Shown: positions 3,919-56,272 of the stretch, piece after piece | Position numbering within the stretch: position 1 is the first letter of the stretch | How the letters are laid out: each line of letters begins with the position of its first letter | Program-made: the position numbers and the translations under genes | Assembly (NCBI GenBank): GCA_965232015.1 | Contig: OZ246946.1 | Span: 3,430,612-3,494,611, forward strand | Length of the DNA stretch: 64,000 nucleotides | Origin: Vicinamibacteria bacterium | Lineage (GTDB): Bacteria > Acidobacteriota > Vicinamibacteria > Marinacidobacterales > Marinacidobacteraceae | Direction of reading: 5' to 3' | The notes under the pieces: model-generated | The model's input: the letters and a program-made list of their open reading frames with translations, nothing else | What the model was told of the DNA's origin: nothing | The model's database searches: none

Positions 3919-3967
3919 CTCGTTCTCCCCGGGGCCAGTGTCGGGCCCCTGAACCGACCGGCGCGAT

Positions 3968-7358: not shown

Positions 7359-7380
7359 GCGCGGAAGGATATCGGAACCC

Positions 7381-7625: not shown

Positions 7626-7626
7626 C

Positions 7627-10408: not shown

Positions 10409-10538
10409 GGTGGCCCTCCCCATCCGTTGCGATGGCCCCCCGGCCCGCGCCGCGGGTGTGATCGGACACATTCTGACAGAGCGCGAGCGCGGCGCCGCCA
10501 CACTCCGACGGCCTCGCATAGCATCGCGGGCCCTGCCC

Positions 10539-14420: not shown

Positions 14421-14460
14421 CCGGCCCGCTCACGGCGGCACGCGGACCGGCGTCGTCGGC

Positions 14461-14838: not shown

Positions 14839-14839
14839 G

Positions 14840-16344: not shown

Positions 16345-17245
16345 GGTGGCCCGGCAGCCGCTCGGCGACCTGCCCGTGCCCGTGCCGGTCCGGGATCAGC
16401 CAGTCGAGGTGTTCGCGGCGCACATAGAACGGCGCGCAGCCGAAGTCGGCGTGGAGCCACTTGTAACCGTTGCCGCAGGCGAAGTCCACCTTTTCGTCGT
16501 GGAGGCTGGTCGGAAAGGTGCCCCACGCCTGGACGGCGTCGGCGAAGAGATACGCCCCGTGGGAGTGGGCGAGGTCGGCCAGAGCGGGGATGTCGTAGCG
16601 GAAGCCGTTGCGGTTCGACACCCAGGCGACGCTGAGGAGGCGGGTTCGGTCATCGGTCTGCGCGGCGAAGTCTTCGACACTCACCACGCCGTCCCGCGAC
16701 GGGATGATCCGGAGTTCGACCCCCGCCCGGCGCTCGAGCTCGCGGTAGAGCACGAAGGTCGTCACGAAGTGCAGCTCGTCCACGACCACGTTGTCGCCCG
16801 GCCGCCAGTCCATCGCGTTCACGACGATGTTTTCGGCGTCGCTGGTGGAGTAGAGGAAGGCGAGTTCGTCCTCGTCGGCGCCGAACAGCCGGGCGAAGCG
16901 GGAACGCGCGCCCGCCACCGCCTCGCCATTCGCCACCAGCTCGCGCCGGAGCATCTTGTTGTCGGCGTAGCGGTGCAGGGCGTCGCGGACCGGAGCCGAC
17001 AGCGGTCCCACCGCCGCGTTGTTCAGGTAGGCGAGCTCCTCGGCGACCGGGAAACTGTCCCGGACCCCAAGCGGATCCGTCGCCCCGGCGGTTGAGCCCG
17101 CCGAATCCGGCCGCTCCGACTTCCCGCGACCAGCCGATTCCCCCGCGAGCGCGCTGGCGCCCGGAACAGCGGCCAGCCCGGCCGCCGCGGTGGTCCGGAG
17201 GAAGCGTCGCCGCCCCCATGAGTTGTGCTGTTCCGTCGGCTTCAT
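16345..17245 (-). pseudogene. Class V aminotransferase, N-terminal fragment with Tat signal, disrupted by IS insertion
   Basis: MKPTEQHNSWGRRRFLRTTAAAGLAAVPGASALA is a Tat signal, followed by ...AYLNNAAVGPL... and ...FACGNGYKWLHADFGCAPFYVRREHLDWLIPDRHGHG..., the PLP-enzyme N-terminal and central region. The frame runs into IS-derived codons at about 16344. Confidence 0.6.
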
Positions 17246-17644
17246 CTGGATATCCTCGGCTCGAGGGGCGCTCCCCTCCCGACCGAGTGTATGACCGCCC
17301 CGACGCACCAGATCGTGTACGGGCCCACGCCTGCCGGCCGAGATGCCCTCGAACTCGGCGCCGCTGTCGGAGGGCGTCGTCTCGACCCTGTGCTGCGCTC
17401 GGTGCGCGAGCGGGTCCGCGAGGGGCGGGGGAAGATGTCGAGGAAGCGCTGGACCAGCCGGCGCCGAGGTCGGGGGAGGCGACGGCCATGGAGCGCCGGA
17501 TCCCGGTGGCGATCCCGCGGCGGGTGTCCCCGGCGATCCGCTCGCCGGGGCGTTCGGGACCTAGCCCCCGGGCCAACTTGTTCGCGGATCGAGGTGCTAC
17601 GCTCGGGTTCGATTCGATCGCAAGGGAGGCGAGGGGACTGCTCC

Positions 17645-36683: not shown

Positions 36684-36704
36684 ACGCTGGGAAGGACAGT
36701 CGAG

Positions 36705-36947
36705 ATGAGTGATCTCTACGCGCGGGTCTCGTGGTTCCGAGATCTCGCCCGGCGCATTGCCGATGGTGGGAAGGAGTACCTCGCCGACCGAGTTCCCAAG
36801 GTGGACTGGAAGAAAAGGAGGCCCCCGGCGGTTGTCCAAATGGGCCTCGCTCTCTCGGCCAGCCCGGACGCGCTCCTCGATCAGATCCGGAAGCTGGCCA
36901 TGCGGATTCGCGGTGCGGCGGCCGCCGTCCACTTTCACGCGGTCTGA
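36705..36947 (+). CDS. Hypothetical small protein (80 aa)
   Basis: ORF with an SD-like GGAAGGA 12 nt upstream. It has lower GC and sits between the two ATPase genes on the same strand. Confidence 0.35.
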   Translation: MSDLYARVSWFRDLARRIADGGKEYLADRVPKVDWKKRRPPAVVQMGLALSASPDALLDQIRKLAMRIRGAAAAVHFHAV

Positions 36948-37004
36948 CTACGCTTGACACGAGCTCCAGCACCGAGTGGTCGGCCCGCGAGATACGCTCC
37001 GGAC

Positions 37005-38192
37005 ATGAAGCGACAGCGAGGCTGGGAGAACCCGTTCCAGCCCGGGGCGGGCGCGTCGCCTCCGGTCCTCGCGGGGCGGGAACGAGAGGTCTCGCTGGGG
37101 CGGGGGCTGCTGGATGTCCTCGAATCAGGTTCCCGACCTTCGCGGGGGCTGCTCTATTTCGGGCCCCGCGGGAACGGCAAGACCGTTCTGCTCGCACATC
37201 TGGCGGACGAGGCGCGCGGGCGCGGAATGCGCGCCGAGGGGCTGCCGGCGGACTGCTTCGCCGACCGCGAAGAGCTGATCGGGAGGCTCCAGGAGAACGC
37301 GGGGCTCGCCCGAGCCGAGATCACGGCAATGCAGGCGGCGGGGTTTGGCGTCGCCTCCGTCCCCGGACCCCGAACCCGCAGCATTGGAGGACTCCTGGCC
37401 TCGTGGATCGGACTCGCGGAGAGTCCCCTGGTGATCCTGCTCGACGAGGCGCAGTCAGTGGAGCCGGCGGCCGGTCGCATCTTCTTCGCCGCGGTTCAAG
37501 AGGCGACGATGGATGCGCTGCCCTTCGCGCTCATCGCCGCCGGAACCCCCGATGCTCCGCGGCGCCTACGCCGGTGCGGAACATTCATCGAACGCGCGCT
37601 CCGCCGGGTACCCGTGGGACGCCTGAATCGGAAGGAAACCCTGCTCGCGCTCGAGGAGCCCGCACGACGGGCGGGGCGGCCGACCTCCGGTGGCGCCGCC
37701 CAGCGGCTGGCGTCGGAGTCGCAGGACTATCCGTTCTTCATCCAGCTCCTCGGAAGCGCCGCCTGGGATGCGGCGCGGCCCGGGGCCCGGTTGATCGATT
37801 CGGACGCCGCGAGGGCCGGAGTGATGGCGACCCGCCCGGAGATCCAGGACTTCTACGCGGAGCGCTACGAGGAGGCCCGAGCCCGCGGCGTTCATCGGCT
37901 CCTGTGGCCGCTCGCGCATCGCATCGTGGACGGAGGCGGCCAGATTGACGATCGCGCACTCGACGCGCTGCTGGAGAGAAGCGGCTCGTCGGATGCGCAG
38001 GCTCGGGTTCTCGCCACGCTCACGGACCTCGGCGTCCTGTGGCAAGCGGCGCCCGGCATCTGGGAAATGGGCATCCCGAGCTTCGCCGAGCATGTGCTGC
38101 GTCGAGGCCGGGTCTCGCACAAATCCCACCCGGCCTCGAGAGCTGCCGATGATCGGCAAGAGCAGCCTTCTCCGCGCTCGAAGCAAAGGTGA
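37005..38192 (+). CDS. AAA+ ATPase (AAA_16 / 'archaeal ATPase'-like, STAND-related)
   Basis: ...NPFQPGAGASPPVLAGREREVSLGRGLLDVLESG...GLLYFGPRGNGKTVLLAHL... is the N-terminal FxxR motif followed by a Walker A. ...LVILLDEAQ... is a Walker B. About 396 aa from the ATG at 37005. Confidence 0.65.
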   Translation: MKRQRGWENPFQPGAGASPPVLAGREREVSLGRGLLDVLESGSRPSRGLLYFGPRGNGKTVLLAHLADEARGRGMRAEGLPADCFADREELIGRLQENAGLARAEITAMQAAGFGVASVPGPRTRSIGGLLASWIGLAESPLVILLDEAQSVEPAAGRIFFAAVQEATMDALPFALIAAGTPDAPRRLRRCGTFIERALRRVPVGRLNRKETLLALEEPARRAGRPTSGGAAQRLASESQDYPFFIQLLGSAAWDAARPGARLIDSDAARAGVMATRPEIQDFYAERYEEARARGVHRLLWPLAHRIVDGGGQIDDRALDALLERSGSSDAQARVLATLTDLGVLWQAAPGIWEMGIPSFAEHVLRRGRVSHKSHPASRAADDRQEQPSPRSKQR

Positions 38193-38657
38193 CGCAGGCG
38201 CCACCCAATCGTCCGTGCTGCGAGCACATGGCCCCACCTCAGGCGGCAATGCGCCGGTACGGAGTGCGACGAACCGCAGATGCGGCGGCTGTTCCGATGC
38301 AGAGTCACGCAGATGGCCAGGCATGGGATGAGGTTGATGTGTTCTGACGAAACCGAGAAAGGGCACGCCGCCACTGGAGCAAATGATGACGCCGCAGGAA
38401 CTCGGTCTCGATCCGGTGCCGCGAGAAGCCTTCGGAAGCCTCCTGTGGGAGGCTGGACGGGAACGGCGCGTCAAGTGCACATGTCTTTGTGCTACAGTGA
38501 TTTACATGACCATACGCTCTCCCTCCGGAGTCAGGGCAGGGAATGCCCGAGTTACACTATGGACCTGATCGGCGAAGGTTAGTCATGCCTGCGGCGGGCG
38601 AGTCGAAGCACGTTCGGCTGTTGATGTCCATGCCGCTGCCCCGAAGGAGGATGTCCG

Positions 38658-38864
38658 GTGGAATCTGAACGGAAGCCGGTGCGCGCGTTGGAGTCCGAGC
38701 CCTCGAGCGATTTCCTCCGCGAGGTCGTTGGGCAGGCGAGAGCGCTTCCGGATTCCGATTGGCGAGAGCGGATCGCATTCGCGAAGAAAGTGCGCCAGGA
38801 CACGCTGGAGGCGAGGAAGAAACGTCCGTTTACTGATGGGGTCGTCCTTCGGCCTACCGTCTGA
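38658..38864 (+). CDS. Hypothetical small protein (68 aa), GTG start with strong SD
   Basis: AAGGAGG lies 7 nt upstream of the GTG. It is immediately followed, with a 12-nt gap, by the SDH-family peptidase gene, and GC is lower. Confidence 0.35.
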   Translation: MESERKPVRALESEPSSDFLREVVGQARALPDSDWRERIAFAKKVRQDTLEARKKRPFTDGVVLRPTV

Positions 38865-38876
38865 GCTCCAGACGGT

Positions 38877-39710
38877 ATGCCCCCGGACCGCAGCCCTCTC
38901 TTTGAGGCGCAGAACGCACCTCGCTACGAACGTCAGTCGCTTATCGCACAGTACGAGGCTGAGCACAGGTGCCGTCTTGTCGTAGTCAGTGACCCGCTCT
39001 TTCCGCATAGCATCGCACCGTTCGAGGAGGTCCTGTTCGACGTGGAGTTGGGCCAGGATCTTCACGTCGTCCTACGTACACCGGGTGGAGACGGCGAGAC
39101 TGCGGTTCGACTCGCACGACAGGCACATGCTCGTTGCGACAGATTGACGGTAGTCATTCCGGATCAGGCCAAGAGCGCGGGGACACTCTTCGCGCTTGCC
39201 GCACACCGGATCATCATGGGTCCGACGAGTGATCTCGGACCCATCGACCCTCAGCTGCTTCTCCCGAATGGCTCTTTCGTAGCAGCGCGAGCCATCATCG
39301 CGTCGGTGGATGAGGCGGAGCGGAGGATTCAGGAGAATCCAGCCACGTATCCGCTCCACGCGTCGCTCCTCGCCGAAGTGACCGGGGTGCTGGTTCAGCA
39401 GGCGCGAGACGCCTTGGATCGGACCGATGACTTGCTGAATGCCGCCCTCGGGTGTGTGTCGGACCGTAGCGAGGGGGATATCCAGACGTTGGCGGAACGT
39501 GTCAGGGAGCCGCTGATCAAGGAGCCCAGGAGCCATTCCGCGATCGTCTCGTCAAGCGACGCGCAGCGGTTCGGTCTCCCGGTCAAGATTGCTGACGCGG
39601 ACTCGCCTCGGTGGAAGGACATCTGGCGGCTGTGGACCAAGTATGCCGTCCTGAACGCGGTCCGGATCTACGAAGGGCGCACTGCGTCGCTTGTCATTTC
39701 CTCTGCCTGA
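38877..39710 (+). CDS. SDH-family serine peptidase (serine dehydrogenase proteinase, ClpP/crotonase fold; Pfam SDH_sah-like)
   Basis: ...LHVVLRTPGGDGETAVRLAR...IPDQAKSAGTLFALAAHRIIMGPTSDLGPIDPQ... matches the characteristic Ser-containing core of this family. Confidence 0.6.
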   Translation: MPPDRSPLFEAQNAPRYERQSLIAQYEAEHRCRLVVVSDPLFPHSIAPFEEVLFDVELGQDLHVVLRTPGGDGETAVRLARQAHARCDRLTVVIPDQAKSAGTLFALAAHRIIMGPTSDLGPIDPQLLLPNGSFVAARAIIASVDEAERRIQENPATYPLHASLLAEVTGVLVQQARDALDRTDDLLNAALGCVSDRSEGDIQTLAERVREPLIKEPRSHSAIVSSSDAQRFGLPVKIADADSPRWKDIWRLWTKYAVLNAVRIYEGRTASLVISSA

Positions 39711-40240
39711 GTCGGGTCGGCTCCGGGTGTAAGGGCCCTAAGGAAGGCGAGTGTCGCCCATTGGCCGACTGGGCCCATACGGCCCGGCTCAGATCACACG
39801 GGGAGCACTGCTCCGTCGGTCGTACTCGAGTTCGACAAGTCTCGGGTATATTTCGGGATGGAGCCTCGGGTCGAGGAACGGTCCACCGTGAACTTACGGC
39901 ACCGCAGACAAGCCAGGTTGTCCGCGGGAGCCCCAGTTGCATGGAGTGAGGCTCTGATCGGCGCGCAAGCTCGTTGATGTGCTAACTTGAGCCTGGCATG
40001 CTCGACTTCACGAGGCGCATGTTGACCTCCGGTGCGCTGTCGACGAACAGGACAGTTCGGCCGCTCGGTGTCGAGCCACTCCGTGTCGGCGCGATCTTGG
40101 GTCCGTCGAGAGCGTAGTGGACAAGCAACCGTCCATGCCCACGGATCGGCGCCGAGGCCTCACTCCACGCCAAGGTCGCTTCGATGCGGGTGGGCTCGCG
40201 CCAGGTTGCGGCCGTCGGGTGACGGAGTTAGACTGTTCGC

Positions 40241-40612
40241 ATGCGCCGAGACATTGACCTTTGTCGCCACATTCTCATCGAGATTGAGAGCTGGGACACG
40301 ACTCAAATTCCGAAACAAATCAGATTGGATGGGTACTCCAAGGACCAGACCGGTTATCACGCTTGGCTCCTCGCAGAGGAGGGAATGGTCGTTGGGGTCG
40401 ACGTGACGAGTCTCGGCGATTCGGTTCGCCAGTTTGCTCCCAGGAGCCTTACGTACAGGGGTCACGACTTTCTGGAACTCGGTCGGAACGAGACCCGCTG
40501 GCAGAAGGCGAAGGCGCGTGTCCTGAAGGTCGGCGGGCCGATTACGTCTGACATCATGATGTCCCTGCTTCGGAATCTCGCGGCTCGCGCAGTCGGTTTG
40601 CCTGACGCGTGA
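40241..40612 (+). CDS. DUF2513-family protein (phage/mobile-element associated)
   Basis: MRRDIDLCRHILIEIES... resembles the conserved N-terminus of DUF2513 proteins. Low-GC patch. Confidence 0.45.
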   Translation: MRRDIDLCRHILIEIESWDTTQIPKQIRLDGYSKDQTGYHAWLLAEEGMVVGVDVTSLGDSVRQFAPRSLTYRGHDFLELGRNETRWQKAKARVLKVGGPITSDIMMSLLRNLAARAVGLPDA

Positions 40613-40656: not shown

Positions 40657-43600
40657 TCAGGCGGCCCAGCGGTCGGAGAGCGCTTCGGCCTGTTCGATCA
40701 CGGTGCGGGTAGCTTCTTCGATGCGGGCGCCCGGGTAGTTGTGCTTGCGGAGGATGCGCTTGACGAGGCGACGGATGTTGGCGCGGACGTTCTCGCGAAG
40801 CGTCCAGTCGATCTTCACGCTGGCGCGGACCGTCTTGAGCAGTTCGCGGGCGATGGTGCGCAGCGTTTCGTCGCCGAGCACCGAGACGGTGCTGTCGTTC
40901 GTCCCCAGCGCGTCGTAGAACGCGAGCTCCTCCTCGGAGAGCCCGAGCGTCTCACCGCGGGCGCTCGCTTCGCGGATCTCGCGGGCGAGTTCGATGAGCT
41001 CCTCGATCACCTGCGCGGTCTCGACCGCACGGTTCCCGTAGCGCCGGATCGTCTCCTCCAGCATTTCGGCGAAGGAGCGCGCCTGGACCACGTTCTTGCG
41101 CCCGCGGTTCGCGACTGCGCCCTCGATGAGCTTCCGTAGCAGCTCGACCGCGAGATTCCGGTGCTCCATGCCGCTCACCTCGGCGAGGAACTCCTCGGAC
41201 AGGACCGAGACGTCGGGCTTGTCGAGTCCGGCGGCGGCGAAGATGTCCACGACCTCCTCGGAAGTCACGGATCGCGAGACGATCTGGCGGATGGCGTAGT
41301 CGATCTCTTCGGCGGGGCGGGCCGTTCCGGGGGCGCGCTTGGCGAGCACGGCCTGGACGGCCTGGAAGAAGGCCACGTCGTCGCGGATGCGGGTCGTTTC
41401 CTCGTGCGGGACGGCGAGCGTGAACGCCTGCGAGAGCTCGCGCACGGCGCGGAGGAACCGCTTCTTGCCGTCGTCCTGCGCCAGGATGTGTTCCTGCGCG
41501 GCGGGCAACAGGGCGAGTCGTTCCGCCGGCGTACCGTTGGTCCACGCCGAGCGGTCGAACCCGTGGAACAGGTCGCAGCAGACCTCGTACTTCTCGAGCA
41601 TCACGGCTACGGCGTCCGCTTGATGCACAGTGGTGTCACCCCGGCCGCCGCTCTCGGTGTAGGTCGCGAGCGCCAGCTTCAGTTCGGCCGCGATGCCGAG
41701 GTAGTCCACGATGAGTCCGCCCGGCTTGTCACGGAAGACCCGGTTCACCCGGGCGATCGCCTGCATCAGGCCGTGGCCGCGCATCGGCTTGTCCACGTAC
41801 ATGGTGTGAAGGCTGGGGGCGTCGAAGCCGGTCAGCCACATGTCGCGCACGATGACGACCTGGAACGGATCCTGGGGATCGCGGAACCGTTTGGCGAGGT
41901 TTTCGCGCCGGCCCTTGTTCCGGATGTGCGGCTGCCAGTGCGGTGGATCCGACGCGCTGCCCGTCATGACGACCTTGATTCGGCCCCGGTCGCCTTTCTC
42001 GCCGCGCCACTCGGGTCGGAGGCGCGTCACCTCCCGGTAGAGGTCCACGGCGATGCGTCGGCTCATGCAGACGACCATCGCCTTGCCTTCCAGGGCGTCG
42101 AGGCGCCGCTCAAAGTGGGCGACGATGTCCTCGGCCACGAGCCCGAGACGCGGCGCCGCGCCGACGACCGCCTCGAGCTGCGCCCACTTTCGCTTCAGTT
42201 TCTCCCGGCGGGTGTCCTCCTCGCCTTCGGTCACGTCCTCGAAGTCCGGGTCGATCTGTGGGCGCGCGTCGTCGTCGAGCCTCAGCTTCGCGAGGCGGCT
42301 CTCGTAGTAGATCGGGACCGTCGCCCGGTCCTCGACCGAGCGGGCGATGTCGTAGATGCTGATCGTGTCGCCGAACACGGCTCGGGTGCTGGCGTCCGCC
42401 AACTCGATCGGGGTGCCGGTGAAGCCGATGAACGAAGCCCGGGGGAGGGCGTCGCGCATGTGCCGGGCATAGCCATCAATGAAGTCGTACTGGCTGCGGT
42501 GCGCCTCGTCCGCGATCACGACGATGTTCCGGCGGCGCGACAGGAGGGGATGGCGGCCGCCCTTCTCCTCCGGGAAGAACTTCTGGATCGTGGTGAAAAC
42601 CACGCCCCCCGATTCGACATCCAGGCGCTTCCGCAGATCGGTGCGGTTTGCGGCCTGGGCCGGGGGCTGACGGAGGAGGTCGGCACAGCGCGAGAAGGTG
42701 CCGAAGAGCTGGTCGTCGAGGTCGTTCCGGTCGGTGAGAATGACCAGGGTCGGGTTCTCCATGGCGGGCTCGCGGATGATCCGCCCGGCATAGAAGGCCA
42801 TCGTGAGGCTCTTCCCGGACCCCTGCGTGTGCCAGACGACGCCGATCCGGCGGTCTCCCGGATCGCCCCCGGATTGGGACGTGGCTCCGTATGCCTGCCT
42901 CGCCTCGGCGGCTCGCTGCGCCTCCTTCCGGAGCGACGCGGCGCGCAGGGTCTCCTCGACCGCCACCTCGACAGCGTGAACCTGGTGGTAGCCCGCCATC
43001 TTCTTGGCCAGCTTCCCGCTGCCGTCGTCGTCGAACACGGTGAAGTCCCGGAGGAGCGTGAGAAGCCGGAACCGGTCGCAAGTGCCGTGGAGCAGCACGT
43101 CGAGTTGGAGCTGATGCGGCCCGGCCTCCGTTCGGCCGTCCATCGTCCGCCACGGCTTGAACCACTCGCGCCCGGCGGTGAGAGTGCCGATCCGGGCCTC
43201 CACACCATCCGAGGCGACGAGCGCCATGTTGAAGGCGAACAGGCTCTGTAACTCGCCCCTGTAGGTCTGAAGCTGCTGCCACGCCTTCCAGACCGTGGCC
43301 TTCTCGTCCGCCGGGTTCTTGAGCTCGATCAGCACGAGGGGAAGGCCGTTCACGAACAGCACGACATCCGGGCGTCGCTGGTGATCCCCCTCCACGACCG
43401 TGAACTGGTTCACGGCCAGGAAGTCATTGCGCTCGGGGTGGGCGTAGTCGAGGACGGAGACCTGGGCGCCGCGCATCACTCCATCGCCGGCGCGATACTC
43501 GACGCCTATACCCTCCACCAGCATTCGGTGCAGGTCGCGGTTGCGGGCTTCGAGAGTGGCACCCTGAGGTTCGGTCAGCTTGCGGTAGGCGTCGTCCAAT

Positions 43601-43797
43601 GCCTCGTCGGGAAGATCCGGGTTTAGCCGGTCCAAGGCGTCACGTAGCCGATGTTCCAGAACGACTTCGGAGTGGTCGGCCCGCTCCGCGCCGTCCGCGT
43701 GCGGGGCGATGTCGGGACCGTGCGCCACCTTCCACCCGAGACCTTCGAGCCATTCGAGCGCGGCGGCTTCGACTTCCGACTCGGTGAAGATAGTCAT
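40657..43797 (-). CDS. hsdR: Type I restriction enzyme R subunit
   Basis: [22 protein letters not shown]... is the N-terminal nuclease region, with ...[18 protein letters not shown]... (PD-(D/E)XK). Helicase motifs are ...[12 protein letters not shown]... (motif I), ...[11 protein letters not shown]... (DEAH) and ...FIGFTGTP... A C-terminal helical domain follows. The start ATG is complementary to 43795-43797. Confidence 0.9.
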
Positions 43798-43882: not shown

Positions 43883-46168
43883 TCATGCCGCACTTCCCCC
43901 GGAATCCGCAGACGACGTGACAAGTTTCACCATAGCTGAGAAGTGCTTGCCGTCTTCCGCCTTGATCATACACAGCAGATCGCTGAGCACGGAAGGCCCC
44001 TCTGCGAGCGCCGTCAAGTCATGCTCCGGTTCGCCCATAGCAATGCTGTGTGAGTGCGTGTGCAGGAACCGGAGAATCCGATGCTTCTTGGCTTCGTCGA
44101 ACGAGACTTCTTTCATCTTCTGCCACAGTCCTCCAGAAACCTGCGGCTGACGGAACGCGAGAAACGCTTCCAGCATGCGCCTGGCCATGTTTGGAAGGGC
44201 GTAATTCTCCTCAAGATCCCTCGATGCCGCCGTCGTTGCCGCTTCATGAATGCGGGCGAACAGATACTGGTATTCTGAGTCATACTCAGCAAGCAGTGGA
44301 TCGAGGCCCCGAATGGCGCTACTCCGTATGTTGTCCTCTTGCCCAGACTCGAGCATGAAGAATCGGGCGGGGCCGTTGCTCGAACTCCTACGTGCCCCAC
44401 CGTTCAGATGTCGAAACCAGTTGCGAACCTGTCGAAAGAAGGAGAAATTGTGTGTCAAGACGAACAGTTGGCCCGCGTCTCCCGTGCGTTCTCGAATGAA
44501 GCCGAACGCGAGGAACAACGCGTTCGCATCGAGGCTCGACACTGGATCGTCCAGTACCACGACCCCACGCGCACGCTCGAATCGTCTGTCCTGCAGGGAC
44601 TTAAGAAAGTACAAGAGAGCGATGGCGGTAGTCTCTCCCTCGCTCACCGATCGAACTGGTTCGCCACTGCGTGTGATGGAGTAGCCCGTTTCCTTGATCC
44701 CGAGGGATAGCTCGCCATGACCGAGATACTTTCGCAGATCCTCGTTCAGATCCTCGGCCGGCCGCCGATGCTCTACCATCTCGCCTTCGAGCTTGGCGAT
44801 CTTGGCATCCAACCGCTGCGCCGCTCGCTCGTTCGTTCCTCGATCCGCGCGTGCACTAGTCGCTGCGTCCTGCAATAGAACGAACTCGTCCAGCTCGAAG
44901 GCAATCATGTGTCTGGCCAACCGGTTCCGGGCCTCTTCACGCCCAGTCTCGAAAGTCTCGCTCTCCTCATTATGCTCTCTGATCACCGTGTTTAGCTTCT
45001 CTACCACGTCCTCATCCATCTGCGGCTGCTTGAACTCCACCTTTACCTCCTCAAATGCCCGAGCCTTCTTGCATGCCAGCGCCTGAATTAGAACGCCGAG
45101 GAATCCGCGCGTTGAACCCAGTGCGTCCCTCAGCGCGCGCTCACAAGACTGGAATTCTCGGACGAAATGGTCATAGAGAGCCGTCGGAGGGGGTACCTCG
45201 ATGCCGTCGGCCGCCTCAAGTGCAGTCTCTAGTCGTTGGAGCTGCTGGTCGATGTGCTGAAGCAACCGGTCGTACTCCACGTTGAAATGTGCGCTAAGGA
45301 CATCCAAACGCTGCTGTGGCAACGACTGGCTGCAGAACAGGCACTGTTCGGCCTTCCTATCCCGGTGCAACGTCAGACCTTGGAGTGTCCAGTCGGCGAG
45401 CGCGGGATCGCCCTTCAAAGCGTCAATCGCGGCTGAACCAACCGTTGTCGTTAGGACTGTTAGCACCCGGTCCCTGAGTGTGTTGAAATCCGGCAAGGCA
45501 TAGTCGAGCTCGGCGACTCGCGGTTTCGCCGTACCGTTATGGTGAGCACGGAGTCTGTCGTGATCCGTGTCGGTCAAGCGGTGAATCGTAGCGTCACCGT
45601 TGGCAAGCATCTGCCTTGCGTCATTCAGGAAATTGGACTTGTTGTAGTTGTTGTAGCGATTCTGGCGGCCAGCCCTGAGGGTGTTCTTGATGTGTTTCGC
45701 ACGCTCGATACAGAATCGGTCCAGTTTGCTATTGGCTTCCTGCTCGGCGGAACGCGCCCATGTCAGGGTATCTACGAGTGCCGCGCGATCCCTCTGTAGG
45801 TGCTCAAGCGTTCTTTGCTTCTCCACGCTCTCCGCGCCCAGCACGAGAATGGGAGGCATGTCGCCGCCTCCGACGGGCAACACGTTCTCCTCAACGAAGT
45901 CCCGGTTGAACACTCGGATGTGAAGCGGCGAGTGCGGGAAGGCGTCGCCCGGCACATCGTGACCGTTGATGCGCAAAACGGCCTCGCCCATCCCCGGCGC
46001 GCGAGCAACCTCAAGGCTTCGAAACAGCCGGCTCAGCGTCGTCTTGCCCGTCCCATTCCAGCCGTAGATGACGTTGTAACGTCCGAATTCAGGAAGGTTT
46101 GACGGCCACCTGAAGTCGCGGAAGATGCCACACCTGCGCAACCGTGCTATTCGGTCGATGCGTGTCAT
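43883..46168 (-). CDS. RloC/PrrC-like AAA_13 ATPase, putative anticodon nuclease embedded in the type I RM locus
   Basis: Walker A is ...[13 protein letters not shown].... A long coiled-coil insert carries CxxC (EQCLFCSQ; a zinc-hook like RloC). The Walker B/D-loop is ...[12 protein letters not shown]..., with an H-loop ...LTHN... A ~170-aa C-terminal domain follows. Location between hsdS and hsdR mirrors the E. coli prr locus. Markedly lower GC. Confidence 0.55.
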
Positions 46169-47466
46169 TCCGCCCTCTCGAGGAACCTCGTCGTATCGTA
46201 AGCGTGCAGTTGTCCGGCGATGAGTCGCGGGAGTAGCGTGTCGCGGAGTGTCACGAGGCTACGACTGCTCAGTTCGTTGGCAACTCGTCGCTCCAGCATG
46301 CTCGAGAAAGTTCCCGATAGTCTCGCGATCACGTCATCGGGAGGCGCAACGCAGAGGGCTTCCGTCAGATGGTGCCGCCTGATGTGTCCCATGGTTGTGG
46401 CCTTGTCCTGGGCGATCCGTCGGAATGTCCGAAGATGGGACAGCAGAGAGTGAAGGTAGAACCACTTGGGATACCTCGCCGACGTGACCTTGAAGAGGTG
46501 CTGGTTCAAGGCCGCCCGCCCACCGCACCACGTTCTGACCAGCAGGCTTCCTGACCACGAGAACACAACGTCGCCATCCTCGATTATGCACACTGGTCTG
46601 ATAGCGGCACTCGCCCACTCCCCGCTATTCGCCTCTCCAGCCCGCAACTGGGCGATCTTGACCACCGGCAGTCGTGCTTCGTTCTTCGCGGGCCGGAACT
46701 TCTGAAGAGCAAGCCCGTTCTGGAACCGCGCGATCTCGTCGAGCGGGGCTGCGTTCCACCCCAACGGTATCTTGCCCATCTCGGAATCCACCATCCGGTC
46801 GGGGAAGAGGTCGGCGATCTCGTGCGGCACGCCCGTGTCGCGGCCCTCCATCTGGGCGCGGACGGGATCGAAGTCCACGAACCAGGACTTAAAGAGCGCT
46901 CGGGCCATCGCCTCCAGCGTCCAGTTCATCCGCCGGTTCAGGTCGATCTTGTTGTCGAGCGTCTCCAGTACGTCGACGATACGGCAGCGAATCGTGTTCA
47001 GGTGGGGAACCCGCAGACCCAGAAAGTCTTCCCGCGCAAGGCCCAAGTTTGTCGTCCCAGTTGCGCATGCTCGACAGTACGCACGGACTTGAGGTGTTCG
47101 AAGCAACCAGTAGATGTAGTCACTCGGGACATCTTCCAGTTTCGGTATCAACTTGACTGTGTCCTGAGTCAGGCGACCTGAATACTGTGCGGACGGAAGT
47201 CTGGCAACGGCACCAAGCAGGTCCGCCGCTTGGGTGACGTCTTTCAGGGAGACATAGAGGTCTCGAGGTTGAACCATGAGGTGATCCGGGGAATCGCCTC
47301 CGTAGGTTCGCAGGGAATCCGAGCGGAATCCACCGTTGCGCTGAATTGTCGCGAGCCCGAGCAGCAAAGGACCGGGTTGCCCGAGGAGACGGCTCTTGTA
47401 CGTCCTACCTCTCTGAAGGGTAAAGTAATCCCCCAATGTCTTGTCAGCAGTTGTTGAGATGGGCAT
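46165..47466 (-). CDS. hsdS: Type I restriction-modification specificity subunit
   Basis: Two target-recognition domains plus conserved spacer helices (...LLPRLIAGQL..., ...PLGWNAAPLDEIARFQNG...). The ATG is at 47466. The same reading frame continues upstream without a stop into the MNT domain. Confidence 0.8.
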   Translation of the reverse strand: MPISTTADKTLGDYFTLQRGRTYKSRLLGQPGPLLLGLATIQRNGGFRSDSLRTYGGDSPDHLMVQPRDLYVSLKDVTQAADLLGAVARLPSAQYSGRLTQDTVKLIPKLEDVPSDYIYWLLRTPQVRAYCRACATGTTNLGLAREDFLGLRVPHLNTIRCRIVDVLETLDNKIDLNRRMNWTLEAMARALFKSWFVDFDPVRAQMEGRDTGVPHEIADLFPDRMVDSEMGKIPLGWNAAPLDEIARFQNGLALQKFRPAKNEARLPVVKIAQLRAGEANSGEWASAAIRPVCIIEDGDVVFSWSGSLLVRTWCGGRAALNQHLFKVTSARYPKWFYLHSLLSHLRTFRRIAQDKATTMGHIRRHHLTEALCVAPPDDVIARLSGTFSSMLERRVANELSSRSLVTLRDTLLPRLIAGQLHAYDTTRFLERAE

Positions 47467-47505
47467 CGCTGGATGCCTTGAACCGATCGCCTGGGAATCC
47501 GACCT

Positions 47506-47820
47506 CGGATCCTGCACGGCTACGCCGTGTCGCCGGATGATGTTGCGAAATCCTTCGTCGGTCCTGGCCCAGTCCACGACATCGACCTTGAACGGCAGAT
47601 CGGAGTCTCCGAGCGCCTCGTCCAAGGCGGAGACTGTGCGTAGCGGGAGGGGCTCCTCACCCATGACCGCCAGGTCGAGGTCCGAGTAGTCCTTTGCGGT
47701 CCAGGTCGCGCGGGATCCAAAGGCGAGCACCTCGCGATCCGGTACATGAATCCGTAGAGCGCGGCGGACGATAGCCCAATGATCGGGCCGGAGGTCGACG
47801 CTAGGTACGGAAGTCCTCAT
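47506..47820 (-). CDS. MNT-type minimal nucleotidyltransferase (HepT/MNT toxin-antitoxin partner); no stop codon, in frame with hsdS
   Basis: ...LAFGSRATWTAKDYSDLDLAV... is the GS...D-x-D nucleotidyltransferase motif. The start ATG overlaps the HepT stop (TAATG) at 47820. The ORF track shows one uninterrupted frame from 47967 to 46165. Confidence 0.6.
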
Positions 47821-48227
47821 TACAGCCAGTCCCGCAGCCGGTCCCGGAGATAGGCCACCTCCTCGAGAAACCCCGGAATGGCCGCAACCACGGTCTCCGC
47901 GATCGACTCGTTGTAGGTGTGGCTCGTCATGCCGCGCATCTTCCGGTAGTCGCGCCATTCGGGCCACGCCCCGAGCAAAAGCCCCTGCTCGTTCGCCGTG
48001 CGGATCTGATCCTGAAAGGTCATTTGATCGAACAGCGCCGGGTTGGCCGCCGTGAATTCCAAGTAGCGCTTCAGAGTCTTGCAGCCGAGTTCGTAGGTGA
48101 ACTCGAAACGCTGAATCAGGCCGTCGCGAATCTGAAGGTCGCTCGTGTCCTCCCGATACCGCTCCAGTCCCTCCGCCAGCCGTTGGATCGCCCGTTCGAA
48201 GGGTGTGATGTCCGGGATGTCATACAT
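47820..48227 (-). CDS. HepT-like nucleotidyltransferase-substrate-binding protein (HI0074 family, HEPN RNase toxin)
   Basis: MYDIPDITPFERAIQRLAEGLERYRED...RDGLIQRFEFTYELGCKTLKRYL... matches the NTase_sub_bind family. It lies 4 nt downstream of the hsdM stop. Confidence 0.7.
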   Translation of the reverse strand: MYDIPDITPFERAIQRLAEGLERYREDTSDLQIRDGLIQRFEFTYELGCKTLKRYLEFTAANPALFDQMTFQDQIRTANEQGLLLGAWPEWRDYRKMRGMTSHTYNESIAETVVAAIPGFLEEVAYLRDRLRDWL

Positions 48228-48231
48228 GTGG

Positions 48232-49785
48232 TTACCGACTCCAGAATCCCAGCGCCGCAAGGTTCGCGGTGATCGCGGCGTCGAGCCGCGCGCCCTCGGC
48301 CTGCTGTTCGCGAAGCTCCGACACCAGCCGCTCCATTTTGTCCTCGAACGGCTCGCCGTCATCCTTCTGGGGCTCCACGCCTACGTAGCGACCTGGCGTG
48401 AGTACGTGGCCGTGCTTGCGGACTTCGTCTAGGGGGGCGCTCCGGCAGAAGCCAGCGATGTCCTCGTAGTGGCTGTCGCCGCCCTTCCTCCAAGCGCGGT
48501 AGGTGTCGGCCATCCGGGCGATGTCCTCATCCGTGAGTTCTCGGTGCGTCCGGTCCGCCATCCGGCCCAGCTTCCTCGCATCAAGAAAGAGGATTTCGCC
48601 ACGACGCTGCCGTCGTCCTCGGGCGAGGAACCAGAGGCACGCCGGGATCTGGGTCGAGTAGAAGAGCTGGCCGGGCAGGGCGACCATGCACTCCACGAGT
48701 CCAGACTCGACGAGAGCTGCGCGGATCTTGCCCTCGCCGGATTGGTTCGAGGACATGGACCCGTTGGCCAGCACGAACCCCGCGACGCCTCGCGGCGCGA
48801 GGTGGTGGACCATGTGCTGCACCCAGGCGAAGTTCGCGTTGCCCTTTGGCGGAACCCCGTAGCGCCAGCGCCCGTCCTCGGCCAGACGCTCGCCGCCCCA
48901 GTCCGAGACGTTGAATGGCGGGTTGGCGAGGATGAAGTCCGCCTTCAGATAGGGATGGTGGTCGTCGTGGAAGCTGTCCCCGTGGGCGATCTGCCCGCCG
49001 ATCCCGCGGATGGCGAGGTTCATCTGCGCCAGGCGCCAAGTGGTGTAGTTGGACTCCTGGCCGTAGATCGAGATGTCTCCGCGCCTCGTCCCTCCGTTCC
49101 CGTTTCCGTTCGCGTGGGCGCGGATGAACTCCACGGACTGCACGAACATGCCCGCGGAGCCGCAGCAGGGGTCGTACACGCGCCCTTCGTACGGCTCCAG
49201 CATCGCGACGAGCAGCTTCACGATGCAGCGCGGCGTGTAGAACTCGCCACCCCGCTTTCCCTCCGAGTCCGCGAAGCGCGAGAGGAAGTACTCGTAGACG
49301 CGCCCCAGCACGTCCCGGGAACGGGCCTCGGCATCACCGACCCGAATGTTCCCGACGAGGTCGATCAGTCCTCCGAGACGCTGCTTGTCGAGCGCCGGGC
49401 GGGCGTAGTCCCTCGGCAGCACCTGCTTCAGAGCCGGATTGTCCCGCTCGATGGCCGCCATCGCCCGGTCCACGGTCTGCCCGATGGTGGGTTGCCGCGC
49501 TTCAGCTTGCAAGCGCCCCCAGCGAGCCTCGCGGGGGACCCAGAAGATGTTGTCGGCGACGTACTCATCCCGCTCTTCCGCCGCATCCTCGCCCCACTCG
49601 GCGAGCAGCGCTGCGTGGTGCTCTTCGAAGGCGTCCGAGATGTACTTGAGGAAGATGAGTCCGAGGACCACGTGCTTGTACTCGGCGGCGTCCATCGAGC
49701 CGCGGAGCTTGTCGGCCATTTCCCACAGCTCCGCCTCGTAGCCGGTCGTGGCGCCGCTCGTGGCGTTGCGCTTTGCCATACTCAT
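48232..49785 (-). CDS. hsdM: Type I restriction-modification N6-adenine DNA methyltransferase subunit
   Basis: ...[13 protein letters not shown]... is a motif I / SAM-binding site. ...ILANPPFN... is motif IV (NPPF/Y). The N-terminal HsdM_N region is ...[14 protein letters not shown].... The start ATG forms an ATGA overlap with the upstream MNT2 stop. Confidence 0.9.
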
Positions 49786-50075
49786 CGCGGCTTCTCTCTC
49801 GCCGGCGACTCGGAGTGGTTCTCCCGGAGCGCCACATGATGCGCCTCGATCCCGCTGCGGAACGACTTCGGCACATCGTCCCACACGAAGAGATCCACGC
49901 GGAACGGAAGGTTGCTCTCCTCGAAGGCCTCGCGCAGGCTGCCGACCTCCGGTCGCTGGTCAGGGGTGGCGAAGACGACGAGATCGAGATCCGACCAGGG
50001 TCGCGAGGTGCCCTGTACGCGGGATCCGTAGGCCCAGGCGGGCGTGTCAGGCAAGTGTTGCCTGAGCAGCGACAT
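49782..50075 (-). CDS. MNT-type nucleotidyltransferase (second HepT/MNT pair)
   Basis: ...[21 protein letters not shown]... is the nucleotidyltransferase GS...DxD motif. About 97 aa. Confidence 0.7.
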
Positions 50076-50116
50076 GACAGCCCGGCGCTCGGCTGCGCTC
50101 AGGTCGAGGCGGTCGT

Positions 50117-50533
50117 CTAGTCCCACGTCACACCACTCATGGTCTCGTAGAGCCCGATCGCGTCGGCGATGAACTCCGGCACCAGGGCGACACAGGCCCG
50201 CGCCTTGGCGCCATCGTAGTCGTGGGTGGTATCGGTTCTGGCATCGGCGTATCGAAACCAGTGAGCGATCGGCGCATCGAGCAGATGGTTCTCTCGCGCC
50301 AGCCGCAGGAGGGGCTTCGGGCTGTTGGGCGGATCCACGAGCCCGAGCTCCTTCATCAAGTACCGCTTCAGCACCTTCCAGAGGCAGTCGTAGCAGACCT
50401 CGAATCGCTGGATCACGGATTCGGCTCGCGCCTCTCGGTCCAGCCGGGATACGGTGTGGTCGGTGGCCTCGAAGTTGGCGTGCTGCTCGATGAGACGCGC
50501 CAGCGAGAGCCGGAACTTGCCGTAGTCGATCAT
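50117..50533 (-). CDS. HepT-like nucleotidyltransferase-substrate-binding protein (second pair)
   Basis: ...VIQRFEVCYDCLWKVLKRYL... is the same family signature as the 47820-48227 gene. It is upstream of its MNT partner and hsdM. Confidence 0.65.
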   Translation of the reverse strand: MIDYGKFRLSLARLIEQHANFEATDHTVSRLDREARAESVIQRFEVCYDCLWKVLKRYLMKELGLVDPPNSPKPLLRLARENHLLDAPIAHWFRYADARTDTTHDYDGAKARACVALVPEFIADAIGLYETMSGVTWD

Positions 50534-53654: not shown

Positions 53655-53854
53655 GGTCGCACCTCCGCGCCCGTGCGAAAGTACCACCGCCCTCGGCGGC
53701 CCGATGGGTCCGCCTCGTCGTCACTCCGTCGCCACCCACCGGCGAAACATGGGGCCGAGACAGCCCTTGTGTTCGCACACGGCTCGAAACGAAAATAGCG
53801 GTCAGCGCTATTCCAGTGAACGGCAATAGTGGCGATCAGAACAGGAGGAACCCC

Positions 53855-55030
53855 GTGCGCCGTCGAACCGGGACGTACCGGACCATCGCCACCGCCGGGG
53901 AGCCCTTCCGCGCCTTCATTCCGGCTCCGCTCCCCCCGCGGCCGCCGCTTGCGCTGACCGGAACCCTGCAGACCACCCTCGAACGCGCCCACCTCGCTCT
54001 GGGCCGCCTGGACGGCGTCTCCGGTTTGCTCCCGAATCCGGGCCTCTTCCTCTATGCCTACGTGCGAAAGGAGGCTGTCCTCTCTTCGCAGATCGAGGGT
54101 ACGCAGTCGTCGCTCTCCCAGCTCATGCTGTTCGAGGCTCATGACGCCCCGGGGGCGCCGATTGACGATGTCGTCGAAGTCTCGAACTATGTGGCCGCCT
54201 TCGACCACGGCCTTCGGCGGCTGCGCGAGGGCTTTCCCCTGTCGAATCGTCTGATTCGGGAGGTCCACGGCGTGTTGCTGCGACGGGGCCGGGGGAGCGA
54301 GAAGGACCCCGGCGAGTTTCGCCGCTCGCAGGCCTGGATCGGCGGCACGCGCCCCGGCAACGCGGTCTTCGTGCCGCCCCCACACGATGCGGTGCCAGAG
54401 TGCATGGGTGCGCTCGAGCTGTACCTGCACGACGAGAGTGGTGATCTGCCCGTGCTTGTGCGGGCGGCGCTGGCCCACGTTCAGTTCGAGACGATCCACC
54501 CGTTTCTCGACGGCAACGGACGGGTGGGCCGTCTCCTGGTGACGTTTCTCCTCTGCCACGCCGGTGTGCTCCGGCAGCCACTCCTCTACCTCAGCCTCTA
54601 CTTGAAGCGTCATCGCTCCACCTACTACGAGCTGCTGAACGAGGTAAGGGAGACGGGCGACTGGGAGCGCTGGGTCGGTTTCTTCCTGGAAGGCGTCAGC
54701 GAAGTCGCGGACCACGCCGCCGCCACCGCGGATCGGTTGTCGCGCATGTTTCGGCAGGATCGGGAATGCCTCTCCGAAGCAGCCGGCCGGCGCGCTGGAT
54801 CAGTGATCCGGGTTCATGAGGCCCTGAAGGAACGGCCGATCCTGTCCCTGCGGTCGGCGAGCGAACAGGCGGGCGTGTCGGTCACGACGGCTGCCAGAGC
54901 CATGCGGACCCTGGTGAATCACGGAATCGCAAGCGAACTCACCGGCAACCGAAGAAACCGCCTCTTCGCCTATCGCCGCTATCTCGCCGTGATCGAAGAG
55001 GGAACCGAAGTCTCGGGCGATAGCCGCTGA
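53855..55030 (+). CDS. Fic-family protein (AMPylase/adenylyltransferase) with C-terminal wHTH
   Basis: The Fic motif is HPFLDGNGRVGRLL. The start is a GTG 7 nt after AGGAGG. Confidence 0.8.
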   Translation: MRRRTGTYRTIATAGEPFRAFIPAPLPPRPPLALTGTLQTTLERAHLALGRLDGVSGLLPNPGLFLYAYVRKEAVLSSQIEGTQSSLSQLMLFEAHDAPGAPIDDVVEVSNYVAAFDHGLRRLREGFPLSNRLIREVHGVLLRRGRGSEKDPGEFRRSQAWIGGTRPGNAVFVPPPHDAVPECMGALELYLHDESGDLPVLVRAALAHVQFETIHPFLDGNGRVGRLLVTFLLCHAGVLRQPLLYLSLYLKRHRSTYYELLNEVRETGDWERWVGFFLEGVSEVADHAAATADRLSRMFRQDRECLSEAAGRRAGSVIRVHEALKERPILSLRSASEQAGVSVTTAARAMRTLVNHGIASELTGNRRNRLFAYRRYLAVIEEGTEVSGDSR

Positions 55031-55295
55031 GCGGGACTTGGGCCTGGCGATCGGGAACCCGGACCATCGGCGACCGGATGGGTCGTCGGGGAGGCTTCCA
55101 GCCTGTCAGCGGACCGCCACTCCACGCGCGTCGCCGCGACTTGCCTGCGGCGCGTCAATCAAGATGAGACATCGGCGTCAATCAGGGTGAGACACGAGTC
55201 TTGATCGAGGTGGGGATAGTGCCCGAGTTCACGCGGGCAGGGAAGGGGATGCGAGGCTACAATGTAGCAAGGTATCACCACATGAGGAGAAGCGC

Positions 55296-55550
55296 ATGGC
55301 TCTCAATATCCGCAATCAGGAGGCAGAACGCCTTGCTTCTGAGCTGGCCCGGCTCACGACCGAGACGAAGACGGCAGCAGTGACGAAAGCGCTGCGGGAC
55401 CGGCTCGCCCGGGTCCGGCGAGGTCGCGACACGACGACTCTGGCTGACCGGCTGGTGGCGATCGGGAAGGAGTGCGCCGCGCTCCCGGTCCTCGACGAGC
55501 GGTCCAGCGACGAAATCCTCGGTTACGGCGAAGACGGGCTGCCAGGCTGA
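55296..55550 (+). CDS. vapB: Type II antitoxin VapB (RHH, 'MALNIRN' type)
   Basis: MALNIRNQEAERLASELARLTTETKTAAVTKAL... It is immediately upstream of a PIN gene, overlapping it. Confidence 0.7.
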   Translation: MALNIRNQEAERLASELARLTTETKTAAVTKALRDRLARVRRGRDTTTLADRLVAIGKECAALPVLDERSSDEILGYGEDGLPG

Positions 55551-55945
55551 TGGTTGTGGACGCTTCCGCGCTGCTCGCGATCCTGCAGGCGGAACCGGAG
55601 GCCCGTGGCTTCGCCGAGGCGATCGAGGCAGCGGCGAGTCCGACGCTCTCCGTCGTTTCGTTCGTGGAGGCGTCCATGGTCCTCGACTCCCGATATGGCG
55701 CGGCAGGCCGCGACTGGCTCGACCGCTTGCTTCGGGAATGCGGGATGGAGCCCGTACCCGTGGACCTCGAGCAGGCCCGGATAGCGCGCGATGCGTTCCG
55801 CGACTTTGGGAAGGGTCGCCACCCGGCCCGGCTGAATTTCGGCGACTGTTTTTCCTATGCGCTCGCGAAACAGCGGAGCGAGACCCTGCTCTTCAAGGGA
55901 GGCGATTTCGCCTTGACGGATATCCGGCCGGCGGTAGCTCCGTGA
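55550..55945 (+). CDS. vapC: Type II toxin VapC (PIN domain)
   Basis: MVVDASALLAIL...FVEAS...FGDCFSYALA... is a PIN acidic-residue pattern. The start overlaps the vapB stop. Confidence 0.75.
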   Translation: MVVDASALLAILQAEPEARGFAEAIEAAASPTLSVVSFVEASMVLDSRYGAAGRDWLDRLLRECGMEPVPVDLEQARIARDAFRDFGKGRHPARLNFGDCFSYALAKQRSETLLFKGGDFALTDIRPAVAP

Positions 55946-56017
55946 GCCGTCCGGGGCGGTGCTCGATTGGAGCGAGAAGTGAGAGCCATCCTTGCCGCGC
56001 TGCCAAGGCGTGATGTG

Positions 56018-56272
56018 ATGGCCTGGTGCGAACTCGTAATCCGCGGCGTGGATGAAGATCTGTTCGCTCGCTTGCGCGCTGCCAGCGCCGCCGCGGGCGA
56101 GAGTGTGGACGAGACTGCGATCCGCCTGCTGCGTGAGGGCTTGCGGGTGGAGGGGCGCGTGGAGCGATTCCGGCGCTACGTCACCTGGACCGAGCAGGAC
56201 GCTCGGGAATTCGATGCCGCGCTTCGCGCCCAGTGTGCGGTGGACCCGGAGGCATGGGCATCCGCCGGATGA
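56018..56272 (+). CDS. RHH (Arc/MetJ-like, FitA/StbC-type) antitoxin-like protein, no adjacent toxin
   Basis: ...LVIRGVDEDLFARLRAASAAAGESVDETAIRLLREGL... matches VapB/StbC RHH antitoxins. The start is uncertain (TTG 55967, GTG 56015 or ATG 56018). Confidence 0.45.
   Translation: MAWCELVIRGVDEDLFARLRAASAAAGESVDETAIRLLREGLRVEGRVERFRRYVTWTEQDAREFDAALRAQCAVDPEAWASAG

Follow-up and report, generated by a model that had tools for sequence, protein, structure and literature searches.

The locus described here is a restriction-modification (RM) operon which carries, besides the restriction enzyme itself, putative further layers of defence that may act when restriction fails. The locus lies in a window of 64,000 nucleotides (nt) from the genome of a Vicinamibacteria bacterium (assembly GCA_965232015.1, contig OZ246946.1, positions 3,430,612 to 3,494,611), the whole stretch of DNA that was analyzed, to which all coordinates refer. 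An initial annotation, prepared from the letters of the sequence, had described a type I RM locus in which a 761 amino acid (aa) ATPase of the AAA_13 type, compared to the RloC and PrrC anticodon nucleases, sits between hsdS and hsdR, with two HepT/minimal nucleotidyltransferase (MNT) modules bracketing hsdM.

Between 50533 and 40657, read on the minus strand, the genes follow each other in the order HEPN1, MNT1, hsdM, HEPN2, MNT2::hsdS, rloC (encoding the 761 aa protein) and hsdR. We consider it probable that we are dealing with a mobile type I RM operon of low GC content, endowed with built-in abortive-infection back-ups. The locus is a well-preserved new example of known parts of layered phage defence, rather than a new system.

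The 761 aa protein

The RloC family was defined by Davidov and Kaufmann by its ABC (ATP-binding cassette) ATPase motifs, by a CX2C zinc hook within a coiled-coil insert, by a C-terminal triad following the rule Arg-X3-Glu-X36-52-His, with a Ser often preceding the His, and by a size of 658-897 aa (PMC2610378). The product of the gene at 43883-46168 (minus strand) falls within this range, and is predicted to consist of a Rad50-like ABC ATPase, a helical insert bearing a zinc hook and a C-terminal anticodon nuclease of the HEPN type. Its match to AAA_13, proposed as a check by the initial annotation, spans virtually the whole Pfam profile (positions 2-712 of 713, E 2.9e-145), and the features on which that annotation relied, namely a Walker A motif, a long insert with CxxC and an extra C-terminal domain, are all present (GWNGTGKT at residues 36-43, CLFC at 276-279 and a domain at about 596-761).

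Motif conservation was evaluated in 30 divergent homologues, 25-73% identical to the protein, and in 53 closer ones: in the former set conservation of the motifs is 90% or higher, and in the latter their core residues are invariant. Within Walker A (46040-46063, minus strand), which follows the general figure among the divergent homologues, residues G36, W37, N38, G41, K42 and T43 are invariant in the closer set, G39 and T40 being at least 90% conserved. Walker B and the D-loop, [12 protein letters not shown], occupy residues 536-547 (44528-44563, minus strand); in the closer set all positions from V538 to D547, including the DDPVSSLD stretch at 540-547, are invariant, and V536 is at least 90% conserved. 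With the ABC signature SEGE at 509-512 and the switch histidine H573, the complete set of ABC ATPase elements expected of RloC is found, each invariant or at least 90% conserved.

In the AlphaFold2 model the CLFC motif (45332-45343, minus strand) is placed on a loop which connects helix 255-270 to helix 285-321, about mid-way in a helical insert of some 370 residues (110-482), and the pattern Cx[FY]C recurs in all 30 divergent homologues; it is predicted to be a zinc hook of the RloC type. The C-terminal triad, which the initial annotation had suggested looking for by alignment, is found as R663-x3-E667-x39-S706-H707 (44048-44182, minus strand), in keeping with the published spacing. All four residues are invariant in the 53 closer homologues (alignment A1); among the divergent ones S706-H707 is present in each of the 29 which cover the region, while R663 is replaced by K in three and E667 by D in two.

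Homology to a described family member was also found. A tblastn search against plasmids led to the megaplasmid of Cupriavidus (Ralstonia) metallidurans CH34, where an open reading frame (ORF) of 792 aa is 38% identical to the protein from residue 4 to 750 (BLASTP, E 7e-167), with every motif aligned; this ORF agrees with entry 37 in Table S1 of the published RloC orthologues by organism and length only (PMC2610378). Moreover, homologues at 54-65% identity bear the JGI/IMG product name "wobble nucleotide-excising tRNase". Judged by all these hallmarks, the protein is an intact member of the RloC family.

The AlphaFold2 model of the entire protein has a mean pLDDT (predicted local distance difference test) of 79.8; compared to the Protein Data Bank (PDB) by Foldseek, it is most similar to Rad50, and next to SMC proteins, Lamassu LmuB and PARIS AriA. 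For the C-terminal domain, modelled separately (residues 596-761, pLDDT 78), the HepT toxin 7bxo_G ranks first (probability 0.97, E 0.16), ahead of the HEPN proteins 1wwp and 1o3u. Neither the protein nor its profile, used as query in sequence searches of the PDB, retrieved a meaningful match, so that no solved RloC or PrrC relative was available for comparison.

The RloC proteins of Geobacillus kaustophilus and Acinetobacter baylyi share with the 761 aa protein the Rad50-like ABC ATPase split by a CX2C insert and the C-terminal R-x3-E-x36-52-(S)H triad. The family also shares with it an occurrence in type I loci, having first been seen inside the type I hsd loci of Campylobacter jejuni, hence its name (restriction-linked ORF C). 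PrrC, in contrast, measures about 400 aa and has a PrrC box and an uninterrupted ATPase, lacking the zinc-hook/coiled-coil insert, and the insert of some 370 residues sets the present protein apart from it. The anticodon nuclease placed by the initial annotation at the prrC position is thus borne out by the triad and by the homology to the CH34 ORF, and can be specified as RloC-type, not PrrC-type. The ATPase part does resemble Rad50 and SMC proteins, as a generic SMC/RecF-like enzyme would, but the conserved triad is not what the initial annotation expected of such an enzyme, and the outcome which it had named as refuting its reading did not occur.

Common pipelines would label the gene only as PDC-S06 or "AAA family ATPase". 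PDC-S06 is indeed its best PADLOC model (E 1.7e-246, full length), the PrrC model giving a weak partial match (residues 527-708 to model positions 165-315 of 372, E 1.3e-9). PDC-S06 is an unvalidated single-gene candidate, which papers naming it list with no tests reported, whereas here the gene is found as an rloC within a type I operon; annotation as RloC is now possible.

Organization of the locus

All genes of the initial annotation were recovered in place on the minus strand, their starts being refined afterwards. The order which it proposed, hsdM-HepT-MNT-hsdS-ATPase-hsdR with a second pair upstream, holds; the HepT family assignment and the view of MNT2 and hsdS as separate genes do not. 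Domain calls from Pfam, PADLOC and NCBIfam were unambiguous for every part, with matches far beyond chance.

The type I RM system is complete within the locus, each subunit featuring its characteristic domains. HsdM, the methyltransferase subunit (517 aa, 48232-49785, minus strand), contains N6_Mtase (E 3e-105) and HsdM_N (E 6e-27) domains, and matches PADLOC MTase_I with E 1.8e-215. The specificity part of the 551 aa MNT2::HsdS protein (46165-47466, minus strand) is recognized by PADLOC Specificity_I (E 5.6e-92). HsdR, the restriction and translocase subunit (1046 aa, 40657-43797, minus strand), features HSDR_N, SWI2_SNF2, T1R_D3-like and T1RH-like_C domains, and matches the NCBIfam hsdR model with E 1.2e-170. 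Similarity to the HsdR of EcoR124I amounts to 125 bits only, and the C-terminal Pfam domain (T1RH-like_C) differs; by these comparisons the system is not clearly of type IC, a further difference from PrrC, which is always type IC-linked.

Most junctions are very tight. The start of MNT1 overlaps the stop of HEPN1 by 10 nt, the stop of MNT1 overlaps the ATG of hsdM (ATGA), hsdM and HEPN2 are 4 nt apart, the stop of HEPN2 and the ATG of MNT2 share one base (TAATG), and the stop of hsdS overlaps the ATG of rloC (ATGA); 85 nt separate the stop of rloC from the start of hsdR. Because of these overlaps and of gaps limited to 4 to 85 nt a single operon is plausible, and all genes from HEPN1 to hsdR likely form one transcription unit. 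GC content drops to 57-61% over 44-48 kb, as compared to 68-70% in the flanks, which points to a cassette probably acquired by horizontal transfer.

In E. coli the prr locus has the order hsdM-hsdS-prrC-hsdR. The present rloC, like the prrC gene of the PrrC-EcoprrI system, lies between hsdS and hsdR, and the two products share the combination of an ABC ATPase and an anticodon nuclease of the HEPN type.

HEPN/MNT modules

Two HEPN/MNT pairs are present, as originally noted; they belong, however, to the HI0074 family (PF08780) and not to the DUF86-type HepT, and the second MNT is fused to HsdS. HEPN1 (138 aa, 50117-50533) and HEPN2 (135 aa, 47820-48227), both on the minus strand, are candidate RNase toxins matching Pfam NTase_sub_bind with E 3.8e-19 and 9e-33, respectively, while the Pfam scan gave no DUF86 match for either. 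Their Rx4HxY motifs read RTDTTHDY in HEPN1 (R99, H104, Y106) and RGMTSHTY in HEPN2 (R98, H103, Y105). The NCBIfam HI0074 model assigns 80.4 bits to HEPN2, over the cutoff of 55.8, and 48.7 bits to HEPN1, under it. HEPN2 is also similar in sequence to proteins of known structure, namely TTHA0048 (E 8.5e-17), HI0074 (E 6e-16) and the Legionella HEPN toxin lpg2920 (8xdj, E 5.6e-12).

Both partners contain the GSx12DLD motif. MNT1 (49782-50126, minus strand), a free-standing protein of about 114 aa starting from a GTG at 50126, matches Pfam Polbeta/NTP_transf_2. MNT2 (47503-47820, minus strand) is an HI0073-like domain (Pfam Polbeta, E 5e-9) with which the HsdS polypeptide begins; residues 3-106 match HI0073 (1no5) with E 6.7e-24. 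The scores with the NCBIfam MntA_antitoxin model, 37.6 and 34.4 bits, fall below its cutoff of 60, placing the two pairs outside a strict HepT/MntA definition, and the HepT/MntA pair of Shewanella is a more distant relative. By the Rx4HxY motif and the adjacent GSx12DLD, both are predicted to be HEPN-MNT pairs of the HI0074/HI0073 kind.

The closest known systems are the type VII toxin-antitoxin (TA) pairs lpg2920/lpg2921 of Legionella and HI0074/HI0073 of Haemophilus influenzae, which share both motifs and the overlap between the genes; the HEPN-MNT order is that of Legionella, where the two genes overlap by 8 bp and the MNT has been demonstrated to AMPylate the motif tyrosine (PMC11586414). 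Neutralization of HEPN toxins through AMPylation by an MNT is known for homologues of the present proteins (PMC7641770, PMC11586414), and by analogy HEPN1 and HEPN2 are most likely controlled in the same way, HEPN2 by an enzyme borne on HsdS. Unlike HI0074/HI0073, the present pairs sit inside a type I RM operon, and one MNT is joined N-terminally to HsdS. The presence of HEPN proteins within RM operons is already documented (PMC3710099).

MNT2 and hsdS form a single ORF of 551 codons (47820-46165), with no intervening stop, and the PADLOC Specificity_I model PDLC03138 covers the MNT part too. In-frame MNT::HsdS fusions were found in six of the related loci described below (designated L plus a number), L001, L003, L008, L013, L030 and L033, and in two more, L002 and L036, a different MNT family is fused to HsdS likewise. 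Among the 120 nearest HsdS clusters, 69 carry an N-terminal transferase domain and 48 are unfused. Common as MNT::HsdS fusions are in sequence databases, no description of them was found in the searchable literature, and in the Shewanella HEPN-MNT paper hsdS appears in strain genotypes only.

One HsdS homologue, P0176 (630 aa, L043 8001-9893), carries two tandem N-terminal MNTs, one MNT2-like and the other MNT1-like with a degenerate motif, so that both MNT types of the window occur fused to HsdS elsewhere. A putative triple HEPN-MNT-HsdS fusion, P0155, suggested by the Pfam list, was set aside, its sequence suggesting that a truncated HEPN runs on into the gene that follows.

Relatives of rloC

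A search of species-representative genomes yielded forty related loci, the nearest from metagenome-assembled genomes (MAGs) of Longimicrobiales, Bryobacterales and other groups. The arrangement hsdM-(HEPN-MNT)-hsdS-rloC-hsdR is conserved in every homologue of at least 54% identity with usable flanks, in most of those at 46-51%, and also in L014 (40%) and L027 (36%); in L037 (25%), rloC lies instead between hsdM and hsdS. Hosts of embedded rloC genes include Bryobacterales, Longimicrobiales, Nitrospirales, Thalassobaculaceae, Gammaproteobacteria and Rhodothermales, the cassette being conserved across Acidobacteriota, Gemmatimonadota, Nitrospirota, Alpha- and Gammaproteobacteria and Rhodothermales. 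Linkage to RM genes is reported as rare for RloC in the literature, 8 cases out of 72, whereas in the present clade it is the rule, at the hsdS-hsdR junction and with a 4-nt overlap with hsdS.

This overlap (NTGA) between the start of rloC and the upstream stop was found in 10 of the 12 loci checked, the upstream ORF being hsdS wherever it could be identified. Over 12 loci, RloC identity correlates with that of HsdM (rho 0.79) and of HsdR (rho 0.73). The family holds both solo and RM-embedded members, in agreement with the literature; the present clade is mostly embedded, and appears to be translationally coupled to hsdS. Outside these arrangements, L015 is a solo gene amid housekeeping genes, L016 adjoins a reverse transcriptase and L034 an MmeI-type enzyme.

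Sister loci share the pattern hsdM-HEPN-MNT::hsdS-[slot]-hsdR. In L041 (12778-13389) the slot is empty, and an extra gene with weak HEPN similarity follows hsdR; in L043/L044 (9973-13361) it houses a SLFN_AlbA_2/HATPase_c_4 protein, an AAA_15/AAA_21 ATPase and a DUF4276 protein. Since sister slots are either empty or occupied by such SLFN, AAA_15 and DUF4276 genes, the hsdS-hsdR junction behaves as a cargo hotspot, and RloC is one cargo among several which this common platform carries.

In a Bryobacterales MAG (L036), two type I systems lie back to back (2-4913 and 6611-15510), one with HEPN-MNT::hsdS and devoid of rloC, the other containing rloC; hsdM-HEPN appears a third time, starting at 20435, and the same contig carries L001, a second operon with rloC. 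Many close rloC homologues (L002, L004, L009, L013, L024, L028, L032, L033 and L038) are disrupted by frameshifts, by premature stop codons or by inserts about 1.7 kb long. To regard these as a sign of counter-selection of a toxic gene was judged unsafe, as indels in MAGs may be sequencing or assembly errors.

Proposed function

In the operon as we probably have to understand it, a first layer would be provided by HsdM, HsdS and HsdR, methylating self DNA and cutting unmodified DNA. RloC would act as a second layer, probably co-produced with the restriction complex, because the start of its gene overlaps the stop of hsdS. Its Rad50-like ATPase and zinc-hook insert would keep the C-terminal HEPN nuclease off until a phage disables restriction or breaks DNA; RloC would then cut tRNA anticodon loops, bringing translation to a stop. 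Control of the nuclease by the ATPase and zinc hook, and cutting of the anticodon loop once it is switched on, follow the model of the G. kaustophilus and A. baylyi proteins (PMC2610378, PMC3458546, PMC3874168). The third layer would consist of the two HI0073/HI0074-type pairs, where the MNT most likely AMPylates the tyrosine of the Rx4HxY motif and keeps the RNase silent; the location of MNT2 within the HsdS polypeptide would tie the neutralization of HEPN2 to the specificity subunit.

Latency imposed by the RM complex, which the initial annotation had taken over from the known nucleases, is established for PrrC only. The prrC gene is embedded in a type IC locus, and a role as "RM guardian" has been proposed for its product (PMC12707154); the same role may be suggested here. 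By analogy with PrrC-EcoprrI (PMC12707154), and in view of the conserved hsdS/rloC overlap, the RM complex may contribute to the silencing of RloC or to sensing, possibly through direct contact.

Several observations weigh against this interpretation. Deletion of the hsd genes of A. baylyi, which are unlinked to rloC, changed neither silencing nor activation of its RloC (PMC3874168): as that protein behaves normally in the mutants, RM-dependent control is not a property of the family. Four relatives at 46-59% identity (L009, L010, L011 and L012) have no comparable hsd genes nearby, and two of these, L010 and L011, are solo genes amid housekeeping genes; the slots of L041 and L043 indicate that co-location could reflect the hotspot, not co-function. 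Nuclease activity of the protein and its clade is predicted from sequence, and the HEPN fold suggested for the C-terminal domain, while in agreement with the published placement of the RloC/PrrC nuclease in the HEPN superfamily (PMC3710099), comes from a structural match which, at E 0.16, is weak. Finally, a consensus scan of the locus retrieved no promoters; terminator-like sites were more numerous in shuffled sequence than in the locus, and the scan was uninformative as to the transcription unit.

Alternative explanations

It is possible, though somewhat doubtful, that RloC is an autonomous cargo which senses double-strand breaks by its own Rad50-like ATPase and zinc hook, riding the operon hotspot free of RM control. 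An inducer of breaks does activate the A. baylyi protein in hsdR, hsdM and hsdS deletion mutants (PMC3874168), and the internal switch elements (CxFC and the ATPase motifs) are fully conserved in the 761 aa protein; moreover, the slot is empty or differently occupied in sister operons, and more distant homologues are solo genes. A casual insertion, however, is difficult to reconcile with a 4-nt overlap maintained in most of the loci checked, in different phyla, or with an RloC divergence which parallels those of HsdM and HsdR; together these findings indicate long-term co-inheritance and coupled translation.

The HEPN/MNT pairs might, on the other hand, be addiction modules which stabilize the island by post-segregational killing, rather than layers triggered by infection. 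This we hold to be rather unlikely, although the pairs are homologous to classical HEPN-MNT toxin-antitoxin systems, further TA genes (VapBC, a FitA-like antitoxin and Fic) lie close by, and the low GC of the island is consistent with a mobile element. A free-standing addiction cassette would account poorly for the recurrent fusion of the antitoxin domain to HsdS, seen in more than half of the related clusters, and for the conserved position between hsdM and hsdS, both of which suggest that the pairs are integrated into RM function; one role, however, does not preclude the other.

A more circumscribed doubt concerns the fusion, which would be only apparent if HsdS started at an internal ATG (47466), the MNT being made separately or not at all. 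That codon coincides with the start point of unfused HsdS homologues of 430 aa, and fusions are missing from 48 of the nearest clusters. Ribosomes starting at 47820, however, must read through, the same in-frame layout recurs in the related loci listed above, with two MNT families, and single proteins of 500-640 aa are reported by independent gene callers, including that of NCBI; as the internal ATG lacks an obvious Shine-Dalgarno sequence too, we regard this explanation as improbable. That the 761 aa protein might be just an AAA_13 ATPase of a generic SMC/RecF-like or conjugation type, devoid of nuclease, as its generic Pfam family description, weak RecF and ABC matches in NCBIfam, the name "AAA family ATPase" given to plasmid homologues by PGAP (Prokaryotic Genome Annotation Pipeline) and the Rad50 and SMC fold matches of the whole model might suggest, is extremely improbable, and already fails at the level of sequence, because R663, E667, S706 and H707 are invariant in the closer homologues, the protein aligns from end to end with the CH34 ORF, which matches a published RloC orthologue by organism and length, and homologues carry the IMG name of the RloC tRNase.

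Implications

Two features of the operon, as deduced from the comparisons above, go beyond the searchable literature: a clade of RloC which is mostly RM-embedded, and the widespread MNT::HsdS fusion. The latter offers a simple genetic handle on the wiring of toxin-antitoxin modules into restriction systems. Control of RloC by a restriction enzyme has been in question since 2008, and the RloCs studied, being unlinked to RM genes, appear autonomous. An intact clade, almost always at the PrrC position and overlapping hsdS, lends itself directly to testing whether the "RM guardian" idea applies beyond E. coli PrrC.

More tentatively, and with considerable doubt, hsdM/HEPN/MNT::hsdS/[cargo slot]/hsdR might be seen as an undescribed self-guarding RM platform, with an antitoxin borne on HsdS and RloC as a second, independent dead-man switch. 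Were this true, a phage factor degrading, sequestering or distorting the specificity/methylase core would halt re-AMPylation of the HEPN protein and release the RNase, because the antitoxin nucleotidyltransferase is within the HsdS polypeptide; the present clade would then bridge the gap between PrrC, which depends on RM, and RloC, which is autonomous.

Neighbouring genes

Past hsdR, on the plus strand, four genes occupy 31596-40612, where GC content falls to 62-64% over 38-41 kb. They encode a 1695 aa protein with weak C-terminal matches to P-loop proteins of the FtsK/TrwB type, an AAA_16 ATPase (36954-38192), an SDH-type ClpP-like serine protease (38877-39710) and a DUF2513 protein (40241-40612), and may constitute a further defence or mobile-element module.

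On the other side, just outside the operon, a cluster of toxin-type genes is found on the plus strand at 53816-56272. It is composed of Fic/DOC (53816-55030), an Rv0623-like antitoxin with a PIN/VapC toxin (55296-55945) and a FitA-like ribbon-helix-helix antitoxin (55967-56272). RloC-like genes adjoining DOC toxins are on record (PMC3710099).

Farther away, an insertion sequence (14843-16273, minus strand), encoding a DDE_Tnp_1/DUF772 transposase of 476 aa, interrupts a class V aminotransferase gene, splitting it into an N- and a C-terminal half; the flanking parts lie at 14461-14937 and 16295-17308. This element explains the strong dip in GC skew observed at 15-16 kb.

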